Shown here: one piece after another, positions 28,044 through 48,513 of the stretch
Layout: each line of letters begins with the position of its first letter
How positions within the stretch are numbered: position 1 is the first letter of the stretch
NCBI GenBank assembly: GCA_016700095.1
Contig: CP065002.1
Span: forward strand, 867,141 to 931,140
From: Candidatus Woesebacteria bacterium
GTDB taxonomy: Bacteria; Patescibacteriota; Microgenomatia; UBA8517
Length of the DNA stretch: 64,000 nt
Direction: 5' to 3'
The notes under the pieces: generated by a model
Told to the model about the DNA's origin: nothing
Seen by the model: only the letters and a program-made list of their open reading frames with translations
Database searches by the model: none
Translations under genes and position numbers: made by a program

Positions 28044-28808
28044 TTATTTAAAAATATTACTTTTATATATGTTTAGGTTATTTAATATGTAAAGCAGTAA
28101 AACCGCAAGTGAATTAATTCCAAATTTCAAACCGGGTAGCAATTTAATAGAAGAAGACTCTTCGTAAAATCTAACAGGAATTGGTATTTCTCCAATTCTT
28201 ATTCCCTTGGCTATAGCAGAAACCGTGAATTGCTGATCAAAAATAAAATCATTTGAAAATCGCTGAAACGGTACAGTTTCGAGAGTGGTTGCGGAGTAAG
28301 CCCGCATACCCGACATGTGTTCACTAAAATTTACACCCAGTACTGGATTGGCAAATAATGTATACATCCGATTAAACAAGTATTTATGAAGGGGCATTCC
28401 GCCATCTAGCGCTTCTTTGCGAGTTCGTATTCTACTCCCAAATGTGTAACCGTATCGCCCTTGTAAAATTGGCCGAATAAGTTCTTCTATCAAAGTTGCG
28501 TCATACTGATAATCGGGATGAATCATTACAACCACTTGAGGTTTGTACTGAAGCGCTTCCCAGTAACACGTTTTCTGATTACCACCGTAACCAAGATTTT
28601 TCGGATGTTTATAAACTTCAATCCCCAATTTTTGAGCGGTTTTGACAGTTTTATCCTTACTGCCATCATCAACCAATATTATCTTTTTGACAATTTTTTT
28701 GTTTATGTCAGCGAAAGTTTTTTTGAGCGTTTTTTCAGCATTAAATGCTGGCATAACGACTATAACTTTTGGCTTTCCCAACTTTCTTGCGCGTCTTTCT
28801 CTATTCAT
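28044..28808 (-). CDS. GT2, DPM1/GtrB-like polyprenol-phosphate sugar synthase (soluble form)
   Basis: VIVVMPAFNAEKTL...IILVDDGSKDKT...HPDYQYD; 254 aa with no TM. Confidence 0.7.
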   Translation of the reverse strand: MNRERRARKLGKPKVIVVMPAFNAEKTLKKTFADINKKIVKKIILVDDGSKDKTVKTAQKLGIEVYKHPKNLGYGGNQKTCYWEALQYKPQVVVMIHPDYQYDATLIEELIRPILQGRYGYTFGSRIRTRKEALDGGMPLHKYLFNRMYTLFANPVLGVNFSEHMSGMRAYSATTLETVPFQRFSNDFIFDQQFTVSAIAKGIRIGEIPIPVRFYEESSSIKLLPGLKFGINSLAVLLLYILNNLNIYKSNIFK

Positions 28809-28918: not shown

Positions 28919-30994
28919 TTACAAATTCCCGTGACTATTTGGAAATACGATATCAGTATCTAATTTAATTGGATTTGGGGTCCATCCTCCAAAATCTTCG
29001 GATACATCCGCCTCAAACACTTCCAGTTTATCAAAATATACATCCGACTGTGATTCTTGGTATACACCAATACTCACAACAGCATAACTCGAATTTTTAG
29101 GTATAGCGTGTGCAAATTGTTGTTTGGTAAACTCACTACTTGTTATCCGCGGTGATATTCGAACCGCGGTTCTATTTTTACGTTCGGTCGCATCACTTGC
29201 ATTTTTAAAGTATTCAACAAAGACGAAACCATCTCTGGAGTTCAATCCTTCAAGTTTCGACACATGGGTTATCATTAATCCCTTTATATTATCTACACTA
29301 AAATAATTTGAGCTCCAGCTTCGAAAGTTAACTTTTTCATTTTTGTTAAAGGTAAACTCCAATAACAGATTTTTTACTCTCACATCCCTATCGGGAATTT
29401 TTACTACTACAAAATCAGACTCGGGTGCTAATGCAGGATTTGTAATCGAAAAAATCGAATAATCGGAATATTCTCGAATTACAAGTGCTGGATACGCCTC
29501 TTCAAGTAATTCTACCGGTTTGTTCCAGTATTTAAGAGAATTCATTGTCCCTTGGGACATCCACCAATAAAATTCATTTGTCATCCATTCTAGGTTTATC
29601 GCTACGAAGTCTGCATCATTAAATTCCTCCATACTATAATTATGTTTTTGATCAAACGGTAAACGTTCATAATTAACGCTATCAAAATTAACCGAGGAAT
29701 GTGCTGCTATCTTTGAACCCGGAGGTATATTTTCCTCGATCCATTTTTTAGTAATCAAATAGTTCCATTCCTGTCTATACTCATTTCCCACTACAACAGA
29801 TTTTGATATATTTTCAAACAGAGCTAGTCCAATTAGAGGAATAATAATTAATAAACCCACCTTTTTTGGAACTGATTTTGATATTTGTACTACAAATGCT
29901 GATGCAAAGATCATTAATAATGGAGTTACCGTAATAAAGTTTCTCGTGTAAAACCCTCCTCCAGTAAGAAATGTTATGACAATCAAAAAAGGTACAATCA
30001 CAGATAGCAGCATAAGCTTCTCTTTAAATCTGGTAAAAATACTTATTATTCCCAAAATTACGAGCACGCTTGTAACCCTACCCAAACCATAGTGGTACAA
30101 ATATGAATAAGGGAAAAAATCGAATTCATTTTTACCTGTTTTATATTTCAAAGATACATCTACTATCTGTTCTCTAAATTGCTCAAAGTGAATAAAGTGA
30201 TAAGGATTTATTATTAAAGTAATAACCATTATCGACAATCCTGCAATAAATATTTTTTTGTCAAACAAACAACCTATTAAAGCGCTTTTGTTTTTAAAAT
30301 GAAAATAAAAATGAGCTAAAAGTAAAGGTGGTATGGCGTAAACATGAAACTTTGTGGAAAAAGAAAGTCCAGCTCCAATTCCCGCTAAAAGATAACTCTT
30401 AATACTTGGTTTATCAATAATTCGATAGGTTAGTAATAGTGAAAGTAATAAAAAAAATGCATTATAAATATCTGGTAAAGCGAGGTGGCTGTTTAGAACT
30501 TGTCTGTAATTTACAGCTACAAACACAGATGATAACAATGCAACTTCTTTTGCAAACATTTTTTTTGCAAGTAAATAAGTTAACAAGACATTTCCAACAC
30601 CAACTGATGCCGCAATAATTCTACCCCAAGTAAGAACATGTATTTCTCTAATCCCTAATATACTGAGTTGTAAGATTTTATTAGATTCTTCGGTTGTTAG
30701 TGGAAAGTTATACAATCCGTCGACGAACATGCCAATGTTTGATATGTAAAACTTCCCCCAAGAAAATGGTATAAATATTAATTTAAAAAATAGAGCGTTT
30801 AGTATCGGTATTAAACCCGGATATGCATAGTGAAGGGAATAGCCGTTTGCATCTAGCGTACCATCAATCAATATATAAATCCCTTGAGAATAACTCATTC
30901 CTTCGTCAGCATGATATGGTGGATAACCGGGATAAATACCAGTAAATCGCAAATAAGCTGCAGCAAAAAGAATTGCTAGTAATATTTTTTTCAT
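28919..30994 (-). CDS. GT-C glycosyltransferase, ArnT/PMT (GT39/PMT_2)-like (691 aa), with a roughly 300-aa extracytoplasmic C-terminal domain
   Basis: LRFTGIYPGYPPYHADEGMSYSQ (DE motif after TM1), with about 11 TM helices. Confidence 0.65.
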   Translation of the reverse strand: MKKILLAILFAAAYLRFTGIYPGYPPYHADEGMSYSQGIYILIDGTLDANGYSLHYAYPGLIPILNALFFKLIFIPFSWGKFYISNIGMFVDGLYNFPLTTEESNKILQLSILGIREIHVLTWGRIIAASVGVGNVLLTYLLAKKMFAKEVALLSSVFVAVNYRQVLNSHLALPDIYNAFFLLLSLLLTYRIIDKPSIKSYLLAGIGAGLSFSTKFHVYAIPPLLLAHFYFHFKNKSALIGCLFDKKIFIAGLSIMVITLIINPYHFIHFEQFREQIVDVSLKYKTGKNEFDFFPYSYLYHYGLGRVTSVLVILGIISIFTRFKEKLMLLSVIVPFLIVITFLTGGGFYTRNFITVTPLLMIFASAFVVQISKSVPKKVGLLIIIPLIGLALFENISKSVVVGNEYRQEWNYLITKKWIEENIPPGSKIAAHSSVNFDSVNYERLPFDQKHNYSMEEFNDADFVAINLEWMTNEFYWWMSQGTMNSLKYWNKPVELLEEAYPALVIREYSDYSIFSITNPALAPESDFVVVKIPDRDVRVKNLLLEFTFNKNEKVNFRSWSSNYFSVDNIKGLMITHVSKLEGLNSRDGFVFVEYFKNASDATERKNRTAVRISPRITSSEFTKQQFAHAIPKNSSYAVVSIGVYQESQSDVYFDKLEVFEADVSEDFGGWTPNPIKLDTDIVFPNSHGNL

Positions 30995-31941
30995 TTGATA
31001 GCTTCAGCTTTCCAGAAGTAGCAAAATCGGTCGAATGGCTGGTTTTTTACTAATTTATTACCGTATATACTTGTAAACTCCAACATTTTATCGTAAAACG
31101 GTATTTTGTATAACGCAGGAATTAATATCGTTGAAAAAAATAAAAGTCTTTCTATTCTATGCGGGATTATTTTCCATTTTACAAACTTTGAGTTAAGAAA
31201 CAATTTATAATAATCTCCTTTTGTAAATTGCCTTTCATCCTCACCGAGTGCAAATTGTGGAAACGTTGGAAAAACTTTTCTTAGTTTTAATAATTTGAAC
31301 AAACCACGACCGGTAAAACCAATTGGATTATGTAAGTTGGGGTCAACTGTATATAATATTCCTCCCTTTTTTAAAACCCTATAACTCTCATCTAAAATAC
31401 ATTCCGGATCGGCCACATGATGAAGAATATTAATTGCAACAACTACATCAAAGGTATCAGATCTAAAAGGGAGTTTTCTCGCATCACCAACAACAAAATC
31501 ATTATTGGGAAATTTTTCTTTGGCTCTAATCATTTGTTTTTTAGATAATTCCAACCCAACAACCCGTCTTCCTCTGATATGTGATGTTGATACCCCATTA
31601 CCACAACCAATGTCGAGAACTGCATCGGTTAACTTGGTCGGTATATAATTTGCAGCTTCTCCCGATTCTTCCCAGAATTTTAATTTTTTAAATATTTGCA
31701 TATTCTTTTTGTATACGCTTAATGCACTTTTTGTAACTCCCTTTTGCCACTCATCTTCCCAGGCTTCAGCCTCTATTTCTAAATATGGGTCAAGTTTGGT
31801 AAAAACAGGAACGCCGTTTTCTATCTCATACTTTACCGAATTTGCTGATATTAAAGTATTGTTCTTTCTAATCAATTTCCGCTTTGATATAGGATCAACA
31901 AGAATATCCAGAAGTTTTTTATTTATTTTTTGATTTGGCAT
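30991..31941 (-). CDS. Class I SAM-dependent methyltransferase with an N-terminal Trm112-like domain that has lost its zinc-binding cysteines
   Basis: LLDILVDPISKRKL...YEIENGVPVF parallels Trm112 LLxILVCPxCKGxL...YPIxDGIPVLL with C->D/S substitutions. Motif I VLDIGCGNGVST. Confidence 0.65.
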   Translation of the reverse strand: MPNQKINKKLLDILVDPISKRKLIRKNNTLISANSVKYEIENGVPVFTKLDPYLEIEAEAWEDEWQKGVTKSALSVYKKNMQIFKKLKFWEESGEAANYIPTKLTDAVLDIGCGNGVSTSHIRGRRVVGLELSKKQMIRAKEKFPNNDFVVGDARKLPFRSDTFDVVVAINILHHVADPECILDESYRVLKKGGILYTVDPNLHNPIGFTGRGLFKLLKLRKVFPTFPQFALGEDERQFTKGDYYKLFLNSKFVKWKIIPHRIERLLFFSTILIPALYKIPFYDKMLEFTSIYGNKLVKNQPFDRFCYFWKAEAIK

Positions 31942-32651
31942 AAATATATTATATGACTAAAGGGTTTCTTGCTGTGAGGATAGGTTTTCGAGATAGAATA
32001 TCCATTTCCGCAAAGTAATTCATCCCACTCTTTTTCTCTGCGATAATGAAAATTAAAATCATATAGCTTTTTCTCAAATAAAATAGGTACTATGAAGGCA
32101 TCCGTAAGCCAAGTGAATATTGATTTTAATACAGGTCTTTCAATAATTTCAACGATTATTAACTTTCCATTAGTGTTAAGTTTAGCGAATGTTTCCTTGA
32201 CTACTTTCTCCTGAGATTTTCTATTCGGCAAGTGGTGAAGAACATGAGACAATATAATACAATCGGCTTTCGGATATTTACCCGACACAATATCTCCTTT
32301 TTCAAATTTTGTGTTTTCGACTCCTTTGTTGGCGTCTTTTAGTCTATTTTTGTTTATCTCAATTCCGACCAGCTTCCTATTTTTTGAAGAAAGTGCAAGA
32401 TAATTTGTTAGTATACCGTCACCACAACCAAGATCAATTATTCTTCCTGATTTTGGAACTAGCTTGTTTATTTCCTCGAATGGAGCGTCCCACATTCTAA
32501 TTAACGAAAATATTTCAATAAAACCTGCTCCGTTATATAGCTCAAGAGTTTGTTTGAACAAATTACCATATTTAGGTTTTCCAAAGATAAAAAAATATAT
32601 TTTAAAAAACGCTTTAACGAAAATAATTAATAATGATTTTACTATCGCCAT
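31923..32651 (-). CDS. Class I SAM-dependent methyltransferase
   Basis: Motif I IIDLGCGDGILTNYL and motif II ADCIILSHVLHHL. Confidence 0.65.
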   Translation of the reverse strand: MAIVKSLLIIFVKAFFKIYFFIFGKPKYGNLFKQTLELYNGAGFIEIFSLIRMWDAPFEEINKLVPKSGRIIDLGCGDGILTNYLALSSKNRKLVGIEINKNRLKDANKGVENTKFEKGDIVSGKYPKADCIILSHVLHHLPNRKSQEKVVKETFAKLNTNGKLIIVEIIERPVLKSIFTWLTDAFIVPILFEKKLYDFNFHYRREKEWDELLCGNGYSISKTYPHSKKPFSHIIYLCQIKK

Positions 32652-32693
32652 GGGTTATTGATAATTTATAAGTCTAGAAATATAATTACTTAA

Positions 32694-33614
32694 ATGGAAC
32701 TATCAATCATTCTACCAATTCACAATGAAGAATCAAATATCAATCCTCTGTATGACAGACTTTCTCTTGTTCTTAAGAAATTAAAGGTTAACTATGATTT
32801 AGTTTTTATTAACGACGGAAGCACGGATGATTCATTAAATAAATTACTAGCACTAAGAAATAAAGACAAAAGAGTTAAAATAATAAACTTCTCGCGCAAC
32901 TTTGGTCACATGTCTGCAGTTACGGCTGGTTTAAGAAACGCACAAGGAGATAAGGTTGTCATAATGGATTGCGATTTACAAGACCCTCCGGAAGTTATTC
33001 CTCAGTTGTACAAAAAATCAAAAGACCACGACGTCGTTTATGCGATTAAAGAAAAAAGGAAAGAAGGGCTAGTAAAGCGTGCAATGTTTTCGTTGTTTTA
33101 TATCATCCAAACACACATAGCAGATCTGCCTATACCCGCAAACGCCGGAACTTTTTCAATTCTTGATAAAAAAGTTGTAAAAATAATTGATACTCTACCC
33201 GAAAAGAATAAATTTTTTTCAGGTCTTCGGGTTTGGGTGGGATTTAAACAAGGCAGTATCACTTATGAACGTGCGGCAAGATTGTCAGGTGAGAAAAATT
33301 CTTTAAAAAAGCTTGTTAAACTGGCATTCGACGGATTATTCTCTTTTTCTTATGTCCCCCTTAGAATAGCAAGTATATTAGGAATACTGTTTGCTCTAAT
33401 TGCTTTTGTTTTGGTAATAATTGTTGGTGTTCTTAGGATATTCTTCGACTGGGGAATTGTTGGTTGGGCTTCTACATTAACCACAATTTTATTTATTGGC
33501 GGAGTTCAGTTAATAACGTTAGGTATAATAGGCGAATATTTAGCAAGAATTTATGACGAAGTTAAAAACCGCCCAGAGTATATAATTCAAGATAAACATG
33601 GGTTTGATAAATAA
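32694..33614 (+). CDS. Membrane-anchored GT2 polyprenol-phosphate sugar synthase (GtrB/ArnC/CsbB/DPM1-like)
   Basis: LSIILPIHNEESNI...VFINDGSTDDS...FSRNFGHMSAVTAGL...VIMDCDLQDPPEVIP, plus two C-terminal TM helices. This is the canonical architecture of C55-P-sugar synthases. Confidence 0.8.
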   Translation: MELSIILPIHNEESNINPLYDRLSLVLKKLKVNYDLVFINDGSTDDSLNKLLALRNKDKRVKIINFSRNFGHMSAVTAGLRNAQGDKVVIMDCDLQDPPEVIPQLYKKSKDHDVVYAIKEKRKEGLVKRAMFSLFYIIQTHIADLPIPANAGTFSILDKKVVKIIDTLPEKNKFFSGLRVWVGFKQGSITYERAARLSGEKNSLKKLVKLAFDGLFSFSYVPLRIASILGILFALIAFVLVIIVGVLRIFFDWGIVGWASTLTTILFIGGVQLITLGIIGEYLARIYDEVKNRPEYIIQDKHGFDK

Positions 33615-34712
33615 CTACTCCATATCCTTCTCAACTCTTCGGAAATCATTTATAAATTTATTAAAATCCACTTTTCTTGAAAGATTGTTAAATATAAACT
33701 GATCGTTTACTTTTCTTTGTTGTTGAATTATTTTTCGTTTCTCTAGTGTCACTTTAATATTTCTTATATTATAACCAATGGCATCGATTATCATAACAGC
33801 GCTATTCTTTTGTCCTCTTAGGAAGAACACGAATGCGATTCCCAGTGAAATAAATAAATGTATTGGTAATATGTAAATCAAGTTTATTAATTCAAGATTT
33901 TTAATAAGTGACATAATTCTGTTTTTGTAATAATCGTAATTTATCTTCACAACATCCAATCTTTTTATGGTAAAGCCGACTTTATGTTCAATTGTTGCGT
34001 TAGGGAAATAGACTACTTTCCAACCAGCAAGCCATACACGCCAGCAAAAATCACTTTCTTCGAAGTAAGATACAAAATCATTATCAAAAAGCCCAATTTC
34101 ATCAATTACACTTTTGCGAACAAGCATACATGCCCCCTTGCACGAAAATACTTTAGTTTCCTTATTAAATTCTTTACTGTCTTTTTGCCCAAATCCCCAA
34201 TGTTCGAGAAAACCTATACGTGTAAAGAAACTTCCTGCATTATCCAAGTAACTGATTCTACCCTGCCCTTCCGTAACTATTGGCGAAGGAGGTGCTTGCC
34301 CGTCCGTAGGTTTTGGCGAAGGAGGGTCCATCATAAATATCTTGGGTTGAATTACTCCCAATTTTTTGTCCTTTTCCATGCGAGATACCAACTGGTCCAA
34401 CAAGTCAGGTGAAACAACCGTGTCGTTATTTAGCAGTAACACATAATCTCCTTTGGCAAACTTAATCGCCTGATTGTTAGCAGGAGCAAAACCGAGGTTC
34501 ACTTTATTCACCAATAGGCGGTAGTTGGTAGTTGGTAGAATTATTTTTTTGGCTAATTTTTCACTTCCATCGCTACTTCCATTATCAACAACTATCAATT
34601 CCCAATTTTTATATTTAAGTTTAGAAAGCGAAGTTAAGCAATTTTTAAACACTTCCCCACCATTCCAGTTGACGATAATTATTGAAACTTCAGGAACTAT
34701 TCTAATTCTCAT
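33615..34712 (-). CDS. GT2 glycosyltransferase (WbbL/rhamnosyltransferase-like) with an internal Pro-rich insertion and a C-terminal TM
   Basis: VSIIIVNWNGGE...LIVVDNGSSDGS...LLLNNDTVV (DXD-like). Insertion PPSPKPTDGQAPPSPIVTEGQG, encoded by a short tandem DNA repeat at about 34260..34330. Confidence 0.75.
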   Translation of the reverse strand: MRIRIVPEVSIIIVNWNGGEVFKNCLTSLSKLKYKNWELIVVDNGSSDGSEKLAKKIILPTTNYRLLVNKVNLGFAPANNQAIKFAKGDYVLLLNNDTVVSPDLLDQLVSRMEKDKKLGVIQPKIFMMDPPSPKPTDGQAPPSPIVTEGQGRISYLDNAGSFFTRIGFLEHWGFGQKDSKEFNKETKVFSCKGACMLVRKSVIDEIGLFDNDFVSYFEESDFCWRVWLAGWKVVYFPNATIEHKVGFTIKRLDVVKINYDYYKNRIMSLIKNLELINLIYILPIHLFISLGIAFVFFLRGQKNSAVMIIDAIGYNIRNIKVTLEKRKIIQQQRKVNDQFIFNNLSRKVDFNKFINDFRRVEKDME

Positions 34713-34714
34713 GT

Positions 34715-35605
34715 TTAGTACTTTTTACGAATTGTTGTAATTAATGTTTTTAAAAATTTATTAATACCTACCGCGCTTATGTATCCCAGAATTGCAGAGG
34801 TTGCCTCTAATATCCTAATCGCAATAAAAGTAAGTCCAAGTATTGGATGAAATATAAACTTTTTCCAATTCTTGAAATATGCCTTTCTAAAAAGCATATT
34901 ACCTTGAGAAGAAATTAATTCCGGATGTTTTTTGGCGTATGATGCACTTTTTGCGGCATAATAATATTTCTTTCTAAGTTGTTTGGGCAGTGTTAAAGTT
35001 TCTTCGTGGTGTAGTAACCATTCGGTTGACCAGCCAATCTTGTGTCTTTTACTGATTCGATAGGGTAAATCATAATCTTCAGCCCCGGTTAACTTGACAT
35101 CATAACCATCAAATTCATTAAATATCTTTTTATCAAAAAACCTGGCTACTTCTATTGTCGCATCCCCCATGTACATCTCTCTTTCAAATCTTCTAACCCT
35201 ACTCATAAAACTTCCCCCAGTAGTTTTTTCGGGTATGATAAGTGCCTTATATTTAGAATTGGATATAATTTCTATGCAATTCAAAACGACGTTGGGTGTC
35301 AATTCCATGTCAGCATCCAAAAACACTAAATAATCTCCCTTTGCTCTATTTGCCCCAAAATTTCTCTGGATACTTCTTTCTGCATGCTTTCTGGCATAAA
35401 CACGAGTCGCATATTTATTTGCAATACTTACCGTTTTATCCGTACTTCCATCGTCTACTACAATCGATTCAATGTTTTTATAACTTTGCTTGCCGATGCT
35501 AACCAGCAAACGCTTGATATTCTTCTCTTCGTTAAAGGTGGGAATTATTATTGAAACCTTTGGGTATTTCATATTGCTTTTATAATTCTTCATGTATAAT
35601 AACAA
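34715..35605 (-). CDS. GT2 glycosyltransferase
   Basis: VSIIIPTFNEEKNI...IVVDDGSTDKT...VFLDADMEL. Confidence 0.75.
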   Translation of the reverse strand: MLLYMKNYKSNMKYPKVSIIIPTFNEEKNIKRLLVSIGKQSYKNIESIVVDDGSTDKTVSIANKYATRVYARKHAERSIQRNFGANRAKGDYLVFLDADMELTPNVVLNCIEIISNSKYKALIIPEKTTGGSFMSRVRRFEREMYMGDATIEVARFFDKKIFNEFDGYDVKLTGAEDYDLPYRISKRHKIGWSTEWLLHHEETLTLPKQLRKKYYYAAKSASYAKKHPELISSQGNMLFRKAYFKNWKKFIFHPILGLTFIAIRILEATSAILGYISAVGINKFLKTLITTIRKKY

Positions 35606-35749
35606 ATTAGTTACACAAGTTATAGTTAACTCAGTGTAAAATCATCGGTATATGTTGTCTTTTGACTTTGAGTGTTAAGGATTTCATACATGTCAAATTA
35701 GTGTTGAAAGAGGAAATTATTAACCATGTAACTATTTTAATCCGGTTTT

Positions 35750-36688
35750 ATGACAAAAGCACGTAAATTATCTTTTGTAATTCCTGCAAAAAATGAAGAG
35801 GGATCTATTGAGATACTCTATCAAGAAATTATTAGCGTTGTTAAAAACAAAAAGTATAACTATGAAATAGTATTTATTGACGATGGATCAACGGATAAAA
35901 CTTTTGAAAATTTCACAAAACTTAAAAAAGGCGATCCTTGTGTAAAAGTAATTAAACTAAGAGGAAACTGGGGCAAGGCGGTAGCTATGCAAGCAGGTTT
36001 TACTCATGCAACCGGTGACTTAATATTTACTTTGGATGCTGATCTTCAAGACAACCCCAAAGAGATACCAAAGTTTATTGAAAAAATTGACGAAGGATAT
36101 GACCTCGTCGTTGGTTGGAAAAAAGAACGACATGATCCTTTGAGCAAATTAATATCAACAAGATTATTCAACGGAACGGTTAAATTACTCACAGGACTCA
36201 AAATTCATGATGTAAATTGTGGGTTCAAAGCATACAAAAAGGAAGTTATAAATGATCTACCTTTGTATGGTGATCTATTTCGTTTAATTCCAGTAATCGC
36301 TCAAAAACAAAACTACAAAGTTGGAGAAGTAATTGTCGAACATCGAAAAAGAAAACACGGTAAATCTAAATTTGGCTTAGAGCGTAGTTATAAAGGTATG
36401 CTTGATCTTCTGACGGTAGTATTTTTAACAGGTTATCTCAAACGCCCTGGGCACTTTTTTGGTGGGTTAGGCTTTTTATCTTTTTTTGGAGGATTTCTCG
36501 TCGGAATGTATATCACTTTTCTTCGTTTTACAACCGGGTCAATTCAATATAGACAGCCACTTCTTTTCCTGGGAATCTTGCTTATGGTAATTGGAGTACA
36601 ATTAGTAACCACCGGTTTGTTGGCAGAGCTTACATTACATTTAAATCAGAAATCTTCTGTAGCAAATAAAACCGAAACAATTCTCTAG
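35750..36688 (+). CDS. Membrane-anchored GT2 polyprenol-phosphate sugar synthase (GtrB/ArnC/CsbB/DPM1-like)
   Basis: LSFVIPAKNEEGSI...VFIDDGSTDKT...LRGNWGKAVAMQAGF...FTLDADLQDNPKEIP, plus two C-terminal TM helices. Confidence 0.8.
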   Translation: MTKARKLSFVIPAKNEEGSIEILYQEIISVVKNKKYNYEIVFIDDGSTDKTFENFTKLKKGDPCVKVIKLRGNWGKAVAMQAGFTHATGDLIFTLDADLQDNPKEIPKFIEKIDEGYDLVVGWKKERHDPLSKLISTRLFNGTVKLLTGLKIHDVNCGFKAYKKEVINDLPLYGDLFRLIPVIAQKQNYKVGEVIVEHRKRKHGKSKFGLERSYKGMLDLLTVVFLTGYLKRPGHFFGGLGFLSFFGGFLVGMYITFLRFTTGSIQYRQPLLFLGILLMVIGVQLVTTGLLAELTLHLNQKSSVANKTETIL

Positions 36689-38773
36689 TTACTTATATAT
36701 TTTTACTTCCACCTTATCTATTGTACTCAAGCATTGGTCAATTGGACTCATGACAATACGAGCAAATCTAGTCTCATTGCCTATAAATGGAATGACGATA
36801 TTTTTGTCAGTAGGATAGAATCCCATAAGCGGTACACTCCAATCTTCTTTGGGCATAGTCCCAGGTAAACGTTGCCAATTTGTATTGTCTGTAGAAATTT
36901 GAACATAACCATGCTCTATATCCAGACATCGTGCGTCATCGTACGAAATACTAATTTTAGCTAAATCAACTATCTTTCCGAGATCAACAACAAACCCTTG
37001 ATCTGAATATTCGTATGTAAAACCATAATAGTCTGAAATTGACGAGTATTTCTCGGTTCGATATTTTGCTGTGTTTTCCCACACTTTTAATATCGATGCT
37101 CCATCAACATCTATTGAGTAAATTGGGTGTAATCCCAAATTAAGATATCTGTCGTGAAACGAAGTTAATTCAGTTCCTTGGTACGTCAATGCAATTATAT
37201 ATTCTCCCTCTTGAAGGATCCCGCTTCTGTAAGAATTTGAAAGTCTTATATCAGGTCGTATCCAAATGAGAGGTATGTTGGGGATAAGTTCACGAGCGTA
37301 AGCGAGCTTAGTCCCATGAGGTGTACTTTTATTTATCCATGATATACCTTCCCTATACGCTACGCCAAAACTATTTCCAGCAGCCGGAAAATTTATAGAT
37401 CTGGCACCAATATGTCCTCCTATTAGTGAATTGAAATAAACATTTTCGTTCGGGTGAAGAGAAATTAATCTAAATATATGGAAAGTATAACCAGATATTA
37501 ATACTATCCAAAATAGTGATCGGAGTATTTTTTGCTTACTTACCAGGTTGTAAATCGTCAAAGCACCAATACCGCACAATATTGATAAAGGCGCAACATA
37601 CTCCATTATCTGACGGACTCCACCATAAATATTTGTTCCCGGGGCAGTAACTCTTGCAATTGGAACTATCAACCAAAGAACAACCAGAAAATAAAATCCA
37701 TTATTTCGATTTCGTAAATCACATATAGCCTTTGTTAATCCCAGTGCCGATAGAATAAGAACGATTATCGGGGTTGAGAACACTATCCACAACATGGGGT
37801 ATAGATTAATTCCACCAAAGGCAATGAATCGTTTGTCGAAAGAGTCCGTAAGTCCAATTTCATGATAGAAATTCAATACGGTTTTGATATTAGACAAAGG
37901 ATCTAGCCATAAAAATGGCCATAGTGCAATAAAGATAAATAATGCCAGAATGGGAATACAAAACAGAGTCATTATAAGCGTTTTGTTTTGTAAAAGTATT
38001 TTTTTAATTTCACTACGCCTGGGATACAATAGTAGAATCATCCAGGGCAATACGATGAATGGTAAAAAAAATGCATTAAACTTTGTTCCCAAAGCTAGTC
38101 CGGACGTTATTCCTGCAATCAACAACAATCGCTTTTTCTTTCTGAGAACTCCATACCACACAAGCATAAGTGTTAATAAAATATATACCGCTTCTGGAAT
38201 ATCTTTCTCATTATTAAAATGAGCTTCGGACCAATACAGTGGATACGACAACAAAGTTAAGGCAGATATAAATCCTGCAAGATATGAATTTGTTGTATCA
38301 GAAATCCAATAAAATAAAAAAGCGACCGACATTGAAAAAAGTAATATTGAATATACACGATATGAATCAATATCATTAATTATTCCCCATTTCTGAAATA
38401 GAAAGTAGTTAAATAGCGACGAAATAATATCGCTTGCAGGAGGATGTCCACCATCGTTTTCCATAAAATAATTAAAATCAACTCCAGCATTTTGATATAA
38501 ACTAACACGAGCTACATCTTCTCGCGATTTGTCGATTGGGCTAAAAGCTAGTTTGTCCGGATCTTGCCAGTATTTCGTAAATGTCGGCAAATTCGAGAAA
38601 TCACGAGAACCAGTTAAGAAATAATTCAGATATGCTTGTCCGCGCGGCAAGTGATTGATAGTATCCCAGTTAATTCCATAGTGTGGGAGCGTAACCAATC
38701 CAAGAATAAACACTAGAACAAAAATAAATAAAGTGTACAACCTAATATTGCGAAGTTTTTGGCTTTTAATCAT
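36689..38773 (-). CDS. GT-C-like membrane glycosyltransferase (PMT_2-like, 694 aa) with a C-terminal discoidin-like domain
   Basis: About 12 TM helices. The N-terminal loop HYGINWDTINHLPRGQAY carries a degenerate acidic motif. The C-terminal roughly 115 aa (about nt 36689..37040), DLGKIVDLAKISISY...NWQRLP...TRFARIVM, resembles the discoidin pattern seen in 25318..27987. Confidence 0.5.
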   Translation of the reverse strand: MIKSQKLRNIRLYTLFIFVLVFILGLVTLPHYGINWDTINHLPRGQAYLNYFLTGSRDFSNLPTFTKYWQDPDKLAFSPIDKSREDVARVSLYQNAGVDFNYFMENDGGHPPASDIISSLFNYFLFQKWGIINDIDSYRVYSILLFSMSVAFLFYWISDTTNSYLAGFISALTLLSYPLYWSEAHFNNEKDIPEAVYILLTLMLVWYGVLRKKKRLLLIAGITSGLALGTKFNAFFLPFIVLPWMILLLYPRRSEIKKILLQNKTLIMTLFCIPILALFIFIALWPFLWLDPLSNIKTVLNFYHEIGLTDSFDKRFIAFGGINLYPMLWIVFSTPIIVLILSALGLTKAICDLRNRNNGFYFLVVLWLIVPIARVTAPGTNIYGGVRQIMEYVAPLSILCGIGALTIYNLVSKQKILRSLFWIVLISGYTFHIFRLISLHPNENVYFNSLIGGHIGARSINFPAAGNSFGVAYREGISWINKSTPHGTKLAYARELIPNIPLIWIRPDIRLSNSYRSGILQEGEYIIALTYQGTELTSFHDRYLNLGLHPIYSIDVDGASILKVWENTAKYRTEKYSSISDYYGFTYEYSDQGFVVDLGKIVDLAKISISYDDARCLDIEHGYVQISTDNTNWQRLPGTMPKEDWSVPLMGFYPTDKNIVIPFIGNETRFARIVMSPIDQCLSTIDKVEVKIYK

Positions 38774-38775
38774 TT

Positions 38776-39549
38776 TTAATTCTTTTCAAGGAGAAAGATA
38801 TAATTAGGCATAAACGGTAAGATTAAAGACTGTGGAAGTAACTTGCTAATCGGTTTATATTTCACTAATCCATCAAAACCAAATTTCTCAGGATTCCGTA
38901 AAACAGCTATCGTGTAATCGTGAATAATAAACTTATGACACAATTTTTTAATTCCTTGATGACTAAGGTATTTATTACCCATAAATGAATTACCCTTACC
39001 CATTATTCTAACGTAATAATCAGCCAAGCGACTCGGCAAAAAGGTGAGCAAAGGAAGCTTATATTGAGATTCTATTATCACAAATCTGTTCCGGGCTCCA
39101 AGAAAACATATCCCTCCCGGTTTAAGTATACGATAGATTTCATCAAACATGAGTTTTTGATTCTCAACACAGTTATAAACCTGATTAGCAATTACAATAT
39201 CAAACGAATCATCTTTGTAAGGAATTCTCTCGTCGGTGGTTACTTTAAAATTTAGATTTTTTTTCTTAAATGTAGTTTTTGCTTTTTTTATTGCATTCAC
39301 ATCAACGTCAACTCCCACTACATGTTTATAATACTTTGACATGTAATCTGCGATCGTTCCAATGGATGCCCCATAATCCAATAGTATCAGTTTTTTTGTG
39401 TTTTTTTTGAGATGCGCTGATATTAAATGATGTATTTGACGAGCTTTTTTTTGACGACTCTTCTCACCCATCGCGAAGGGTAAAGCCTCTGAATAATCCT
39501 TATTATTTGCTTTATTTTTTTTCATGCTTAACAAATTACTCGTTACCAT
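38776..39549 (-). CDS. Class I SAM-dependent methyltransferase
   Basis: Motif I LLDYGASIGTIADY and motif II FDIVIANQVYNCV. Confidence 0.65.
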   Translation of the reverse strand: MVTSNLLSMKKNKANNKDYSEALPFAMGEKSRQKKARQIHHLISAHLKKNTKKLILLDYGASIGTIADYMSKYYKHVVGVDVDVNAIKKAKTTFKKKNLNFKVTTDERIPYKDDSFDIVIANQVYNCVENQKLMFDEIYRILKPGGICFLGARNRFVIIESQYKLPLLTFLPSRLADYYVRIMGKGNSFMGNKYLSHQGIKKLCHKFIIHDYTIAVLRNPEKFGFDGLVKYKPISKLLPQSLILPFMPNYIFLLEKN

Positions 39550-39649: not shown

Positions 39650-40897
39650 TCACGATAATAGTTTTTTAAATAAATCGTTATATTGTTGTCCTATCGCATT
39701 CCACGAAAATTTAACCTGAACCAGTTGACGGCTATGTTTACCCATTTTATCACGAAGGGGTTTGCTCGCAACAAGTTTACCGAGCACACTTGCGATTTCA
39801 TTTAACGACTTCTCACTTATCAAGTACCCATTCTTTCCATCTTCGATAACAATCTTGTAACCTGGAAAATTTGTAGTTACAATTGGCTTTCCACAAGACA
39901 TTGCCTCCACTACCGAAACAGATTGATCATCTAGATTACCTTTTTCGTCACGTATAGACGGGAGAATAAATACATCTGCTAAATTATAATAATTGACGAG
40001 TTTGTCGTATTTTACCCATCCTGGAAAAATAATATGACTTTCTACGTTTAATTTCTTTACTAATTTTGTCAGGTCATTTCTTTGGTCGCCTTCACCCACA
40101 ATAAGAAAAGTGACTTTGTTGTATTTTTTAAGGACGGTTGGTATTGCTTCAATTAAATAGGAAAACCCTTTCTTGGGAACCAGTCTTCCCACAGACACAA
40201 TCACAACATGATCTTTGGGTATATTGTGTTTTTTTCTAAGTGAAGCAATAGCTGATCGATTTGGCTTAAATATCGATGGATAAGTACCATAGATTATTGG
40301 AGAAAATTTCTTCATAAGTAAATTTCTAGCCTTTATATCGACTGGGTGATTAATTTTTGCAAGATCCTCTAATAACTGCGGGCTGTTGCTTGTAATCCAC
40401 TTAGAACGTCTTGTAGCGAAACGCGCCATCCATCTAAACTGTGGTTTTTGGGCAATGTAAACATCGGAGCCCGGAAGCGTTGATACGACAGGTACTCCTG
40501 TCAAGTACGATGCGATTGATGCAATAAAACCATTCGGTACGATCCAATGTGCATTAATAATATTGATCTTTTCTTTTTTTATTAATTTTATTAGTGCAAC
40601 CAATCCAAAAAAGTACATCAATGGGGACAGAGCATACATTATTTTAGGAACTCCCATGTCGTTTTTCAAAGTATTAGAATAACCCAACATATGGAGACTT
40701 TCCGGCCAAACATATTTATATGTAACAATGGTATATTTTTGATCGCTTACTTTTCGTTTAAATCCTCGTGTATACGGAGTTAAGACAAATACATCATTTC
40801 CAGCTTCAGTTTGCCCATACGCAACACCATCCATAAAGGGAGCCGCATAATCATTCTTGTAACGAGGAAATGTGTGAGTGAGAATGCAGATTTTCAT
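39650..40897 (-). CDS. GT4 (GT-B fold) glycosyltransferase
   Basis: C-terminal VVEAMSCGKPIVTTNFPGYKIVIEDGKNGYLI is typical of GT4. 415 aa. Confidence 0.8.
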   Translation of the reverse strand: MKICILTHTFPRYKNDYAAPFMDGVAYGQTEAGNDVFVLTPYTRGFKRKVSDQKYTIVTYKYVWPESLHMLGYSNTLKNDMGVPKIMYALSPLMYFFGLVALIKLIKKEKINIINAHWIVPNGFIASIASYLTGVPVVSTLPGSDVYIAQKPQFRWMARFATRRSKWITSNSPQLLEDLAKINHPVDIKARNLLMKKFSPIIYGTYPSIFKPNRSAIASLRKKHNIPKDHVVIVSVGRLVPKKGFSYLIEAIPTVLKKYNKVTFLIVGEGDQRNDLTKLVKKLNVESHIIFPGWVKYDKLVNYYNLADVFILPSIRDEKGNLDDQSVSVVEAMSCGKPIVTTNFPGYKIVIEDGKNGYLISEKSLNEIASVLGKLVASKPLRDKMGKHSRQLVQVKFSWNAIGQQYNDLFKKLLS

Positions 40898-41994
40898 TGA
40901 TAATACTCTTTTAGCGTTTTAATTACATATAGAACTTCTCTTTTTCTCATCTGTGGATATATTGGCAACGAAAGAACTTCCTTGCATGATGCTTCAGAAA
41001 CTGGAAAACTATTTGTTTTATTTCCCAAATGTTTATATGATGGTGTTAAATGTATGGGTTTAGGGTAATGTACTGCGCTTGCTATACCCTTATCGCTTAA
41101 ATATTTTATTATTTTTTCTCTATGCTTCACTCGTATAACCAACAAATGATAGACGCCGTACGTCCTTTTGGCTTCTGGCAGTAATACAATTGGGAGATCT
41201 TTCAAACCATTCTGGTATATTTTTGCCAACTCACGTCTTCTTTTATTCCATTTCTCAAGATATTTAATTTTTACATTAAGAATTGCTGCTTGGGTTTCAT
41301 CGAGTCTGCTGTTATAGCCAACAAGAACGCTGTTGTATCTACTTTTTTCACCGTACATTCTCCACAATTTTGCCTTGTCAGATATTTTCTTGTTATTCGT
41401 AAGAATTGCACCTCCGTCGCCATGTGCTCCCAAATTTTTTGTAGGATAAAAACTAAAACATGCAACATCACCAAATGTACCAACTTTTCTATCATTATAT
41501 CTAGCACCGATTGATTGCGCGCAATCTTCAATTAGGAAAAGTTTGTGTTTATTGGCAAATTTCTTTATTGCAATAATTTGAGCAGGATTTCCATACAGAT
41601 GTACAACCACAATTGCTTTAGTCTTATTTGTAATACTGGCCTGTAATTGATTCACGGAAATTAGCAATGATTCCGGATCAACATCAACTAACTTTATTTG
41701 CACACCAGAGTGTGATACTCCAAAAGCAGTCGGATATACATTTGCTGGCACTAACACCTCATCATTCTTTCCAAGTCCCAGTGATTGTATTGCAATTGTT
41801 AACGCATCTGTTCCCGAATGAACTCCTACCGCGTATTTTACACCAATATATGTAGCGAGATAATTTTCAAAACGTGTCACTTCCTCACCAAAAAGATACC
41901 GGCCACTCGATTGTACTTGTTTAACAACTTTATCAAGTTCAGGCTTTAGTTCACGGTATTGTCTTTTCAAATCAACAAATTGAACCGTTTGCAT
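40894..41994 (-). CDS. DegT/DnrJ/EryC1/StrS-family PLP-dependent sugar aminotransferase
   Basis: VQFVDLKRQYRELKPELDKV...GEEVTRFENYLATYIGVKYAVGVHSGTDAL matches the family N-terminus. Probable start at MQTVQF (41994) rather than the ORF-track start at 42030. Confidence 0.8.
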   Translation of the reverse strand: MQTVQFVDLKRQYRELKPELDKVVKQVQSSGRYLFGEEVTRFENYLATYIGVKYAVGVHSGTDALTIAIQSLGLGKNDEVLVPANVYPTAFGVSHSGVQIKLVDVDPESLLISVNQLQASITNKTKAIVVVHLYGNPAQIIAIKKFANKHKLFLIEDCAQSIGARYNDRKVGTFGDVACFSFYPTKNLGAHGDGGAILTNNKKISDKAKLWRMYGEKSRYNSVLVGYNSRLDETQAAILNVKIKYLEKWNKRRRELAKIYQNGLKDLPIVLLPEAKRTYGVYHLLVIRVKHREKIIKYLSDKGIASAVHYPKPIHLTPSYKHLGNKTNSFPVSEASCKEVLSLPIYPQMRKREVLYVIKTLKEYYQ

Positions 41995-42255
41995 AAACAG
42001 GATTCTACCAAATAGGCAATTATCAAGCAATGCTATCCGGAAGAATTTGACATAAACGAGTTACCCCATCAATAGTAAAACACACCCCACGCAATACAGG
42101 GTTTACACATCTCTTTTGTCAATTATTAGACAATTTCCAAAATTACTAAGTAATTTTGTTATTACATTTTATCGACACGCTACTAGATATTTAAAAGGCA
42201 TCAACAAAAAAAAGACTCTCGGAAGCGACACATAGCGTTTACCAGCAAATCAATA

Positions 42256-43293
42256 TTAATTCTTATCTTTTTTCCAATAATGATCCTTGTGTTGCATGTA
42301 ATAATTTAAAGATTTTCTAATTCCCTCTTCTAGTTCGATCTTGGGCGTCCAACCAACTGTTTGTTTAATTTTGGAATAGTTTGCTATATAATCTCCAATT
42401 TCGATCGATTTTCTGTCCGATGGGAAAGGAACTGTTTCGCACTTTCCCCTCCCATGTACTTTTATCACGGATTCTGCAAAACCCTTCAAGCCAACGGGTA
42501 TGCCTCCCAAATTATACACTTCACCCCAGACGGCTTCTGAAGCTCCACAAAGTAAAAATGCGCGTACAACATCATCCACAAAATTTGTATCACGTATCTG
42601 TTCGCCCGTTCCGAACAGTTTGACTTTTTCTCCATCTAGCACTTGTCTAATAAACCAATTTAACACCCCTTGACGCGGATGCTTCATCTGATGCCGAGGT
42701 CCATAGGTATTTGTCATACGAAGGGAACAAGACTTAATTCCATATACTTTGTAATACAGAATATGATAGTACTCACCCGCGTTGATATTTATTCCATTAA
42801 CATCAGTAGGTTCAAGTGGGTGTCGTTCATCTACCGGTAAGTATTGCGCTCTTCCATATTGATTTCTGGTGCCAGCGAAGAGAATTTTTATTTGCGGATT
42901 ATTGTGTCGTACTGCCTCTAAGGTCGATAGCTGACTTACACAATTAATGTCTAGATCGGTATATGGATCCGTCATACTGTCAACATGACTAAGAGTACCA
43001 GCAAGATTGAACATGATATCTTTATTCTGAACTAAATAATTCATACTGTGTTTGTCTCGAACATCTGAAATATTTACGTTGACTTTATTTTTTATAGGGT
43101 CAATATTAAATAAATTTCCACCATAATCCGGAACAAGCGAGTCAATAATTGTCACTTCTGCTCCAAGCTCAACTAGTTTTATCGAAAGTGAACTTCCTAT
43201 AAAACCAAGTCCACCAGTTACCAGCACTCGTTTGCCTTTATAGTATGTTTTTAGTTCGCTTGCTGTTTTTGCTTTAGTCACAACTTTTACCAT
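42256..43293 (-). CDS. Extended-SDR NAD-dependent nucleotide-sugar epimerase/dehydratase
   Basis: Rossmann motif KRVLVTGGLGFIGSSL, and YxxxK embedded in YHILYYKVYGIK. 345 aa. Confidence 0.75.
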   Translation of the reverse strand: MVKVVTKAKTASELKTYYKGKRVLVTGGLGFIGSSLSIKLVELGAEVTIIDSLVPDYGGNLFNIDPIKNKVNVNISDVRDKHSMNYLVQNKDIMFNLAGTLSHVDSMTDPYTDLDINCVSQLSTLEAVRHNNPQIKILFAGTRNQYGRAQYLPVDERHPLEPTDVNGININAGEYYHILYYKVYGIKSCSLRMTNTYGPRHQMKHPRQGVLNWFIRQVLDGEKVKLFGTGEQIRDTNFVDDVVRAFLLCGASEAVWGEVYNLGGIPVGLKGFAESVIKVHGRGKCETVPFPSDRKSIEIGDYIANYSKIKQTVGWTPKIELEEGIRKSLNYYMQHKDHYWKKDKN

Positions 43294-43700: not shown

Positions 43701-44312
43701 TTATATTTTTTCGGATAAATCTGAAGCTTTGTTTGCCAAGTCAACAAGAAGTTTTTCGTCGTTTGTCATAGATAAGAAAATCGCTAGCTTTGATATATTT
43801 TCAAGTCTGGTGTTTATGCCATGCACTTTCTGACCATAGTTTCCACCTTTTTTGCTTATGTCGTTAACCTTTTCTTCCGCTTTGTCCAACTCTTCAATTG
43901 CATCTTTGAGCGTATCTGAGGCAGCATCTTTTTTACCTTCGTTTAGTAATTTTTCAGTTTCCAGAGTCCGTTTGACTGCAATAAATACATGATAATCTAC
44001 TTTCTGCGAACTTCCAAAGATAAGTGCACCTCTTGTTTTTTCTTTAATCCTTTTTAAGAAATACATTTTTTCCGTACGTGTCTTTCCCGCAACAAGTGGC
44101 CAAAACAATTCGTACGAATTTATCTCACTATCTTCTTTTTCTCCCATTTCCCAAAGCATATTTCCCTCTGCTTCATCGGTTGCGGTTTTGTCCTCTGACA
44201 GTTTCATTTTTGCACTCGGAGACACTTCGTTAGTCTTTTCCGCCAATATCATACTTGACGAGCCAGAAATAATAAGTGCTGCTAAAAACATACTAAGTAG
44301 GATTTTCTTCAT
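43701..44312 (-). CDS. Secreted or lipoprotein-like protein with a signal peptide and a K/E-rich coiled-coil C-terminus. Hypothetical.
   Basis: MKKILLSMFLAALIISGSSSMILA looks like a signal peptide. The remainder is hydrophilic and charged. Flanked by unusually long AT-rich intergenic regions. Confidence 0.45.
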   Translation of the reverse strand: MKKILLSMFLAALIISGSSSMILAEKTNEVSPSAKMKLSEDKTATDEAEGNMLWEMGEKEDSEINSYELFWPLVAGKTRTEKMYFLKRIKEKTRGALIFGSSQKVDYHVFIAVKRTLETEKLLNEGKKDAASDTLKDAIEELDKAEEKVNDISKKGGNYGQKVHGINTRLENISKLAIFLSMTNDEKLLVDLANKASDLSEKI

Positions 44313-45533: not shown

Positions 45534-46400
45534 CTAAGTTATTATCAGTATAACACCACCAAACATTATGACTGCACCGACAAGTTTATTTGCAATGTAC
45601 GTTTCATGAAAGAAATACCAACCAAATAAAGTATTGAATATTATCGCTAGTTTGAAAATTGCCGTTACCAAACCAAGGTTTTGCATACTAAACGCTAAAT
45701 AGGCACATGTTTGACCAACAGCCCCCAGTATCCCAATAAGTAAATATGTTTTTTTGTCCTTCGCTATACTAACCAAAGGACGTACCTTGTTTTTTATCAG
45801 TAACAAAGAAAGAATGAGTGTAGAAATAATTAATCCTACAAAAGAAGCAAAAGGGGGAACAGCAGGATAGGTGTTCTGAATGGCAATTTTTTCAAATATC
45901 GGAGTAACGCTCCATATTAGGTATGCAAGTAGCGCAAGTCGGACACCTTTTTCATTAAAAGTTTCCATAAAAGATGAAATAACATTTTTGTAGTTTTTTT
46001 GCCGCAGAAGATATGTCCCCACGACAATAAATATAATTCCTAAAATGTCTCGTCCGCCTAGCTTTTCTTTTAGCAAAAGATAAGAGACTATGGCAGTAAA
46101 TGCCGGATTATAAGCAGACATTGAACTTACAAGTGACAGATCAGTTGTTTTTAGAGCTTTATAAACCAATATCGCCGCGAGTGTTCCAAGGGTAGAACTA
46201 ATTAGGATACTTACAATAAAGATGTGATTAATAAAGGGGATTTGATATTTAATAATAATTATCAAAAAAAGAAATAGTATTACAAGTAACTGTGATACGA
46301 ACAAATAAACTCTCTCGTCGGTTGCACGTAAAATCTTTTTGGCGAATACGTTAGTAACCGATGAAGTTAGTGCAAAGGATATTGAGTATAAAAACCACAT
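45534..46400 (-). CDS. EamA/DMT-superfamily 10-TM transporter
   Basis: 288 aa with two repeated 5-TM halves. Composition is typical of EamA domains. Confidence 0.6.
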   Translation of the reverse strand: MWFLYSISFALTSSVTNVFAKKILRATDERVYLFVSQLLVILFLFLIIIIKYQIPFINHIFIVSILISSTLGTLAAILVYKALKTTDLSLVSSMSAYNPAFTAIVSYLLLKEKLGGRDILGIIFIVVGTYLLRQKNYKNVISSFMETFNEKGVRLALLAYLIWSVTPIFEKIAIQNTYPAVPPFASFVGLIISTLILSLLLIKNKVRPLVSIAKDKKTYLLIGILGAVGQTCAYLAFSMQNLGLVTAIFKLAIIFNTLFGWYFFHETYIANKLVGAVIMFGGVILIIT

Positions 46401-48465: not shown

Positions 48466-48513
48466 ACAATCTTGTACGATTATACTGCAGAAAAATGAAG
48501 CGATACAGCGCAA

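Follow-up and report, generated by a model that had tools for sequence, protein, structure and literature searches.

The 64-kb stretch of DNA described here (the window, positions 1-64000) comes from Candidatus Woesebacteria, a lineage of the candidate phyla radiation (CPR, or Patescibacteria), and represents about 5% of a 1.27-Mb contig. It is 93% coding, and its minus strand carries nearly all of the genes. Two genes on the plus strand, which we call A (32694..33614, 306 amino acids) and B (35750..36688, 312 amino acids), are the subject of this report. A first-pass annotation had placed both, with coordinates and strands that proved exact, among the membrane-anchored synthases of the GtrB/ArnC type. 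The two genes stand in a cluster of alternating orientation, which contains, in this order, a methyltransferase gene, A, two genes for glycosyltransferases of family 2 (GT2), B, and a gene for a GT-C glycosyltransferase.

Both proteins align over their full length with the solved GtrB and ArnC enzymes and end in two hydrophobic helices, as expected for this type of synthase. A matches Pfam Glycos_transf_2 with 94 bits and, in HMMER searches of the PDB, Synechocystis GtrB (sll0501, 5EKP) with 265 bits, its residues 1-304 aligning with residues 26-332 and the transmembrane (TM) region being included. By BLASTP, A is 42% identical to this enzyme and 39% identical to the GtrB proteins of phages P22 and SfI, again over the full length, and it resembles them in length, GT-A domain, juxtamembrane helices, the two TM helices and the C-terminal hairpin region. 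B matches Glycos_transf_2 with 117 bits, and its best structural matches are those to ArnC (9HWJ, 9BHC and 8VXH; 150-154 bits, with 154 for 9HWJ) over residues 4-294, TM region included; weaker ones connect it to GtrB (109 bits) and to the DPMS of Pyrococcus furiosus (PfDPMS, 5MLZ; 84 bits). The matches of A to ArnC and PfDPMS are likewise weaker than its match to GtrB. The identity of B is 33% to ArnC and 36% to the catalytic domain of PfDPMS. Kyte-Doolittle hydropathy places the C-terminal helices at residues ~222-250 and ~260-284 of A (nucleotides ~33357-33545) and at residues ~237-258 and ~268-296 of B (nucleotides ~36458-36637). In the structural alignments, the TM helices of GtrB and ArnC fall on these segments, so that both approaches predict them to span the membrane.

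The metal- and donor-binding loop reads DCDLQD in A (residues 92-97, nucleotides 32967-32984) and DADLQD in B (residues 96-101, nucleotides 36035-36052), and it aligns with 94-DADLQD-99 of GtrB, 100-DADLQN-105 of ArnC and 89-DADLQH-94 of PfDPMS. Structural papers favour the first Asp of this DxD motif as the catalytic base (PMC12698845; bioRxiv 10.1101/2025.01.29.634835), and since A and B both keep it, neither shows a sign of inactivity. The same papers describe the residues that hold the phosphate, which are R122, R125 and K132 in GtrB and R128, R137 and R205 in ArnC. At the GtrB positions A carries K, R and K, and it also keeps R197; thus, it shares the equivalents of R125, K132 and R197 and has Lys for R122. 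B has K, R and K as well, together with a conserved Arg within RKRKHGKSKF. These basic residues are also present in the sampled homologs of both proteins. The GT2 domain, DxD motif and two TM helices of the first-pass annotation are all present, while its "ED motif" is not identifiable; what the proteins contain is an N-terminal NEE together with DxDLQD.

Next, we compared A and B with each other and with known enzymes. The two share 31% identity (106 bits), and they differ at positions that line the active site (GtrB numbering: 157, T in A and G in B; 180, S and P; 197, R and H). PDB sequences, annotated phage gtrB genes, distant genomic matches and sampled homologs went into a neighbour-joining tree, for which we counted the splits in 300 bootstrap replicates; CsbB, GacI, GtlA/GtlB, YkcC/YkoT, PgfS, Ppm1, PpgS, FlmF2, LgmA, AglJ/AglD/AglK, ALG5 and DPM1 stood outside its reference set. 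The A-type and B-type CPR proteins each formed a clade with 100% support. A grouped with the GtrB references (Synechocystis, P22, SfI and an Oenococcus phage) in 97% of the replicates and B fell outside this group; its nearest relatives were ArnC and DPMS, and its grouping with ArnC reached 51%. The B-type clade contained no characterised member among the references tested. The NCBIfam models agree with this separation: A scores best with PgfS (246 bits) and lower with ArnC (162 bits), all far below the equivalog cut-offs, and B scores 173 bits with ArnC, 128 with PgfS and 94 with AglJ, again below the cut-offs. Both clades are strongly conserved, with 55-73% identity among the matches listed, and the B homologs are 61-73% identical among the best 120 listed. 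B shares with DPMS the Gly at the position of GtrB D157, where ArnC has Met, and carries Thr, likewise a hydroxyl residue, where DPMS and ArnC have Ser. Judged from sequence, then, A and B are clearly different enzymes, which belong to distinct clades and not to one characterised specificity.

We then examined the neighbourhoods of eleven homologs, nine of which came with DNA and were mapped to the window proteome by BLASTP; eight of these nine contain B. The order methyltransferase, A, GT2, GT2, B, GT-C recurs. A and B occur together in this order in four loci (L001, L002, L022 and L024, a WWE3 scaffold). In L024, where one protein is named "candidate division WWE3", the genes encode a discoidin protein, a GT-C, two methyltransferases, A, the two GT2s, B and a GT-C. 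Because this locus and other relatives reproduce the order, the alternating-strand arrangement is old or widely shared within the CPR. A is found, in the window as in L001, L002, L022 and L024, always between an ortholog of the methyltransferase at 31923-32651 and the GT2 pair. This methyltransferase (38-50% identity) lies directly upstream of A and divergent from it in L002, L022, L023 and L024, and in L001 a GDP-mannose 4,6-dehydratase (Gmd) gene intervenes between the two. L023 has the A ortholog and the methyltransferase without the GT2 pair. A contig from JGI, analysed with Pfam only, carries both A and B, A beside this type of methyltransferase and the pair, and B displaced from the pair. 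Around B, the ortholog of the GT2 at 33615-34712 (48-62% identity) is directly upstream and divergent in all eight loci, and that of the GT2 at 34715-35605 (45-63%) is present in five (L001, L016, L017, L022 and L024); a different GT2 takes its place in L014 and L015. A scan of genome contigs with B, made with over-specific peptide patterns, returned only distant non-CPR relatives (25-50% identity); nothing in their neighbourhoods matched the window proteome or pointed to a function.

The gene convergent with B (36689..38773, minus strand) encodes a GT-C glycosyltransferase of 694 amino acids, GT39/ArnT-like by Pfam (PMT_2). Its membrane domain occupies residues ~1-440 and is followed by an extracytoplasmic domain. 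ArnT is closest to the structure model (pLDDT 90), and the protein has the multi-TM GT-C_A fold with the conserved acidic residue in the first extracytoplasmic loop. At its C-terminus (residues ~575-694; 36692..37051, minus strand) lies a beta-sandwich that can be superposed on solved domains of the CBM32/discoidin type (CBM, carbohydrate-binding module). The domain scores below the Pfam gathering thresholds (18.5 against 28.2 bits for PF00754, 17.9 against 27.8 for PF22633), and a precomputed PF00754 match exists for 1 of 120 homologs of the GT-C. The description of B as abutting a discoidin-tagged GT-C therefore holds by fold, although the domain stays below the Pfam threshold. This domain probably holds a glycan acceptor. 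The proposed pairing also finds support in the relatives: all eight loci that contain B have a full-length ortholog of this GT-C (32-48% identity, 390-647 bits) no more than 10 kb from it. The two genes are directly convergent in the window, in L015 (17-bp gap), in L017 (23-bp overlap) and in L024 (20-bp overlap). As an independent proxy, the lists of the top 120 homologs of B and of the GT-C have 18 contigs in common, nine of which are at most 11 kb long.

From sequence and gene order we consider it likely that the two proteins are non-redundant polyprenyl-phosphate glycosyltransferases (Pren-P GTs) of GtrB/ArnC/DPMS architecture, and that B works together with the ArnT-like GT-C. For catalysis, sugar, flipping and acceptor we infer the following course. 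Each protein would be anchored in the cytoplasmic membrane by its C-terminal pair of TM helices and would probably form tetramers, as GtrB and ArnC do. At the cytoplasmic face, the DxDLQD loop would bind a nucleotide sugar and a divalent cation, while the phosphate head of undecaprenyl or another polyprenyl phosphate would be threaded between the two juxtamembrane helices onto the conserved Lys and Arg residues. One sugar would then be transferred, giving a Pren-P-monosaccharide that would differ between A and B. This product would be flipped, with EamA and Wzx-like proteins as candidates, and used on the outside by GT-C enzymes, B and the 694-amino-acid GT-C forming a putative ArnC/ArnT-like pair.

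Because A and B are distinct and are kept together in other CPR genomes, two different lipid-linked donors are the most economical reading, in agreement with what was first suggested. The sugars named at the time, mannose, glucose and N-acetylglucosamine, are another matter. GtrB coordinates its sugar weakly and also binds UDP-Gal (PMC12698845), and for this reason our search for specificity-determining residues led to no assignment of sugars; Man, Glc and GlcNAc are not assignable from the sequence. Its place in the GtrB clade makes a UDP-hexose or UDP-HexNAc the most likely donor of A. In L001, a Gmd gene with 76% identity to 48514-49539 of the window lies 5 bp upstream of the A ortholog and is co-directional with it (2364-4366). 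This single locus hints that A might use a derivative of a GDP-6-deoxyhexose. For B, an amino- or deoxy-sugar is plausible, because DegT aminotransferase and 4,6-dehydratase genes recur beside the GT-C.

Several observations weigh against this interpretation. Neither protein reaches an NCBIfam equivalog cut-off, and the activity of the A-type and B-type CPR enzymes is predicted. A has Thr at the position of GtrB D157 (GTFSIL against GDFRLM) and Ser at that of K180. The A-type homologs likewise have T or A at 157 and S at 180, and D157 is present in 5 of the 5 GtrB-clade references of the tree. In Synechocystis GtrB, mutation of D157 abolishes activity, and D94 is now favoured as the catalytic base (PMC12698845). 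In L014-L017 A is absent from its conserved position, and it is therefore dispensable for the core. Among the neighbours of B, it is the two cytoplasmic GT2s and not the GT-C that are the most invariant, which would also fit the building of a lipid-linked oligosaccharide. Finally, the window contains no flippase of the GtrA type, either among its open reading frames (ORFs) or in the intergenic gaps that we examined. The flippase candidates are an EamA protein (45534-46400) and two Wzx-like proteins (6393-7697 and 47200-48513), none of them adjacent to A or B. We also considered a 143-amino-acid membrane ORF (14708-15139), located beside a short GT2, as a partner of the DUF2304 type, and rejected it since it is not DUF2304 by Pfam.

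A more specific scheme would make B an analogue of ArnC, FlmF2 or LgmA that loads a 4-amino-4,6-dideoxy sugar or an N-acyl or N-formyl amino sugar. In this scheme, the dehydratase and the DegT enzyme of the cassette would make the sugar, and the ArnT-like GT-C would add it to an envelope glycan or lipid, altering the surface charge. ArnC is indeed the best characterised match of B, and ArnT (5F15) the best structural match of the GT-C. A DegT gene lies within 10 kb of B in the window, L001, L002, L015, L016 and the JGI contig, and a PglF-like Polysacc_synt_2 dehydratase adjoins the GT-C in L022 and L024. Near the B ortholog we also observed Formyl_trans_N (L016, 11523-12335), Polysacc_deac_1 (L017, 18173-18931) and YdjC (L002, 16262-17149), which we take to be the families of the ArnA formyltransferase, of ArnD/LgmC and of NaxD, the last two of deformylase or deacetylase type. 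However, the tree joins B to ArnC in only 51% of the replicates, B scores 173 bits where the ArnC cut-off is 529, and it combines DADLQD with Gly, whereas the ArnC family is marked by DADLQN and Met. The window has an ArnT-like GT-C and a DegT aminotransferase but lacks the ArnA-type dehydrogenase/formyltransferase, ArnD and ArnE/F of an arn operon. It contains no formyltransferase or deacetylase, and its short-chain dehydrogenase/reductase (SDR) is 4,6-dehydratase-like and not ArnA. No DegT gene is found within 10 kb of B in L014 and L017, and the DegT, SDR and GT4 (glycosyltransferase family 4) genes could feed the cytoplasmic GT4 instead. The GT-C also carries the CBM32-like domain, absent from ArnT. 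The host is a CPR bacterium, and these are not known to have lipopolysaccharide. We regard this scheme as unlikely.

The two proteins could also be redundant isozymes, which would make the same lipid-linked sugar (for example Und-P-Glc, undecaprenyl-phosphate glucose) and differ in regulation or in the complexes that they join. The architecture and the catalytic motif are common to A and B, the loose sugar coordination of GtrB-type enzymes makes specificity hard to read from sequence, and half of the relatives are without A at the conserved position. The divergence of the two proteins, with their separate and strongly conserved clades, the placement of A alone in the GtrB clade and the substitutions at 157, 180 and 197, speaks against redundancy, as does their retention alongside each other in CPR lineages that are only distantly related, WWE3 among them. 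Redundancy thus appears improbable.

Least convincing is a role for B like that of AglJ, in which it would start an oligosaccharide on polyprenyl monophosphate, to be extended by the GT2 pair and the GT4, methylated by the methyltransferases, flipped, and transferred en bloc by the CBM32-bearing GT-C with its ArnT/OST fold. The AglJ model does match B over its full length (94 bits, residues 9-301 against 4-288 of 293), the GT2s divergent from B are its most conserved neighbours, methyltransferases and Wzx-like proteins abound in the island, and no phosphoglycosyl transferase was seen among the window proteins; but the score is far under the cut-off of 325 and under that for ArnC, the GT-C is PMT_2 (GT39/ArnT-like) and structurally closest to ArnT rather than a member of the STT3/AglB family, and GtrB-like synthases also cluster with cytoplasmic polymer-building glycosyltransferases in systems that add monosaccharide side chains, as in the streptococcal Gac cluster. 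We hold this to be very improbable; if true, it would be a bacterial counterpart, common within the CPR, of the AglJ-initiated dolichol-phosphate pathway by which haloarchaea (Haloferax) assemble N-glycans.

Returning to A and B as two distinct Pren-P GTs, the genes around them help to define the system. The methyltransferase divergent from A (31923..32651, minus strand; 242 amino acids, S-adenosylmethionine (SAM)-dependent) has a hydrophobic N-terminus and matches Pfam Methyltransf_23/31/11. The 42-bp intergenic region between them (32652..32693) contains a promoter-like site for A, TTGATA-17-TATAAT, which resembles a sigma-70 promoter with 11 of 12 consensus matches (32658-32686, plus strand) and ends 7 nt ahead of the ATG of A. 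As such a site leaves almost no 5' leader, the A transcript may be leaderless. Promoter and terminator site counts in the region are at chance level, and the site is only a lead. Between the GT2 pair and B lies a 144-bp intergenic region (35606..35749), and the divergence of these genes is kept in all relatives with DNA.

The gene that abuts A at its 3' end (33615..34712, minus strand, 365 amino acids) had been counted among the likely partner transferases. This could not be upheld: it encodes not a GT-C but a GT2 with one C-terminal TM segment (Pfam Glycos_transf_2, Glyco_tranf_2_3 and Glyco_trans_2_3), and in the PDB it matches chondroitin synthase, GalT1 and heparosan synthase best. By these matches it is an ordinary nucleotide-sugar GT-A enzyme of cytoplasmic type, and because a GT-A enzyme cannot use a lipid-linked donor as a GT-C does, it would not be the partner of A in a three-component system. 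Its catalytic domain contains a Pro-rich insertion, PPSPKPTDGQAPPSPIVTEGQG, at residues ~129-152; the orthologs are shorter by ~20 residues (335-349 against 365 amino acids). The second GT2 of the pair (34715..35605, minus strand, 296 amino acids) is divergent from B and matches Glycos_transf_2 with 105 bits and chondroitin synthase in the PDB with 70 bits.

As a user of the product of A, the second GT-C (28919..30994, minus strand; 691 amino acids, Pfam PMT_2 and PMT), on the A side of the core, is a candidate. Its orthologs lie on the A side in L002, L014, L016, L022 and L024, and since it is also present where A is absent, it has no exclusive link to A. Among the relatives' loci, no GT-C co-varies specifically with A.

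Beyond the GT-C that faces B, the minus strand continues with a cassette that is linked to it. It comprises a SAM-dependent methyltransferase (38776..39549, 257 amino acids, Pfam Methyltransf_11, orthologs in L014 and L017), the GT4 (39650..40897, 415 amino acids, Pfam Glycos_transf_1 with 144 bits), the DegT-family sugar aminotransferase (40894..42030, 378 amino acids, DegT_DnrJ_EryC1 with 367 bits) and the SDR, which resembles nucleotide-sugar 4,6-dehydratases (42256..43293, 345 amino acids). The NCBIfam scores of the DegT protein are 250 bits for PseC, 206 for dTDP-4-amino-4,6-dideoxygalactose transaminase and 189 for ArnB, all below the cut-offs; those of the SDR are 142 for dTDP-glucose 4,6-dehydratase, 120 for LegB and 38 for the ArnA/UXS type. 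A GT4 usually accompanies the GT-C ortholog in the relatives (38-62% identity, beside it in L001, L002, L014, L015 and L016), often together with a DegT aminotransferase, SDRs of the 4,6-dehydratase type and a methyltransferase. Next to the cassette, the minus strand encodes a small secreted DUF5667 protein (43701-44312, 203 amino acids) with an N-terminal signal-like segment. It adjoins the B/GT-C cassette in most relatives (L001, from 17681; L014, 456-1007; L017, 19676-20209; L022, 14414-14914) and might be a substrate or an accessory protein.

The stop codons of A and B directly meet those of the convergent genes. The TAA of A (33612-33614) is followed without a gap by CTA, which on the minus strand reads TAG, the stop of gene 33615-34712, and the TAG of B (36686-36688) by TTA, the TAA of the minus-strand gene 36689-38773. 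The exact abutment at 33614/33615 and 36688/36689, noted in the first-pass annotation, is thus correct, while its status as a feature specific to the synthases is not: neighbouring genes of the window are separated by a median of 2 bp, the gap is zero or negative at 21 of 50 junctions, and the five convergent ones measure -4, -4, 0, 0 and +122 bp. With four of five at or below 0, this is the norm of a compact genome, and we rejected the abutment as a specific regulatory feature. The other overlapping convergent pairs share their stops at 13977-13980 and 22047-22050 (TTAG and CTAG). The relatives are similar, in that A and B at their 3' ends either run into the convergent gene or come very close to it, and we found no terminator-like structure at either convergent junction of A and B.

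The glycosylation genes extend contiguously across almost the entire window. At least ten of its proteins carry Pfam GT-C signatures (PMT_2, PMT, AftD or the YfhO type), and four to five further large multi-TM proteins have no Pfam match, including those at 7642-10350, 18022-19680, 23351-25321 and 25318-27987. There are eleven GT2s and four GT4s; the island also holds two Wzx-like proteins, one EamA protein, several SAM methyltransferases and nucleotide-sugar enzymes. We scanned the window for Rfam families and tRNAs and obtained no match. The protein at 25318-27987 (minus strand, 889 amino acids) has about nine TM segments and a clear F5/8 type C domain (residues 641-756) without a GT-C match in Pfam. 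Orthologs of this discoidin membrane protein lie on the A side of the conserved core in L016 (273-2837), L022 (1570-6805, duplicated) and L024 (3961-6360), and it may represent an unrecognised GT-C family with a CBM. Of the 131 positions of the FdtA/WxcM-like C-terminal profile, a 104-amino-acid ORF (20736-21050, minus strand) matches 2-57 only; it may represent a sugar 3,4-ketoisomerase gene that is truncated or survives as a remnant.

Five DPM1/GtrB-like GT2s had been counted in the window, of which A and B alone are established as such. The other three, all on the minus strand (13977-14705, 28044-28808 and 46431-47213), are short (242-260 amino acids), have no TM pair and a degenerate DxD region (EPDGS, HPDYQY and DAGRD, respectively), and match the AglJ, PpgS and DPMS models weakly, with scores far below the curated cut-offs. 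As their PDB matches are weak or empty (23 bits to 6P61, none, and 43 bits to PfDPMS, in the same order), we did not accept them as established Pren-P GTs. The orthologs of 28044 are well conserved, with 79% identity in L001 and 57% in L016, where the gene adjoins the ortholog of the GT-C 28919.

How does this system compare with known ones? The enzyme family, its mechanism and the three-component logic, in which a Pren-P-sugar synthase at the cytoplasmic face supplies an external GT-C (GtrABC; CsbB/GtcA/YfhO; GacI/J/K/L; PMC11127046), are already well known, and so are GT-C enzymes with a CBM that binds the acceptor glycan, such as GT136 ORF12 and EmbC (PMC11127046). The same logic would apply here, with differences. 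In phages P22 and SfI, gtrA, gtrB and the GT-C gene are co-directional, whereas A stands alone on the plus strand between a methyltransferase and a GT2, and the alternating-strand gene order is specific to the CPR. No small flippase (GtrA, SMR or MATE) is found beside either synthase, and the many GT-C paralogs stand opposite two anchored synthases and at most three short candidates. PfDPMS, with which B shares the Gly and the hydroxyl residue mentioned above, has four TM helices and uses GDP-Man and dolichol phosphate.

The proteins had already been annotated, generically, as GT2 and GT39. What is new is the distinction of the A and B clades, an A type without D157 and K180, the order kept across CPR lineages, and an ArnT-like partner of B that bears a CBM32 domain. 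In the literature searched we found no description of extracytoplasmic glycosylation in Patescibacteria, and a paper on the pili of Saccharibacteria terms pilus glycosylation "unexplored". A tiny CPR genome here devotes a stretch of this size to glycosylation, with two synthases facing at least ten GT-C enzymes. The conserved unit provides two expressible enzymes and a candidate GT-C partner, and with them a route to the surface glycans of epibiotic cells. The finding extends a well-understood enzyme family and its mechanism to a new lineage.

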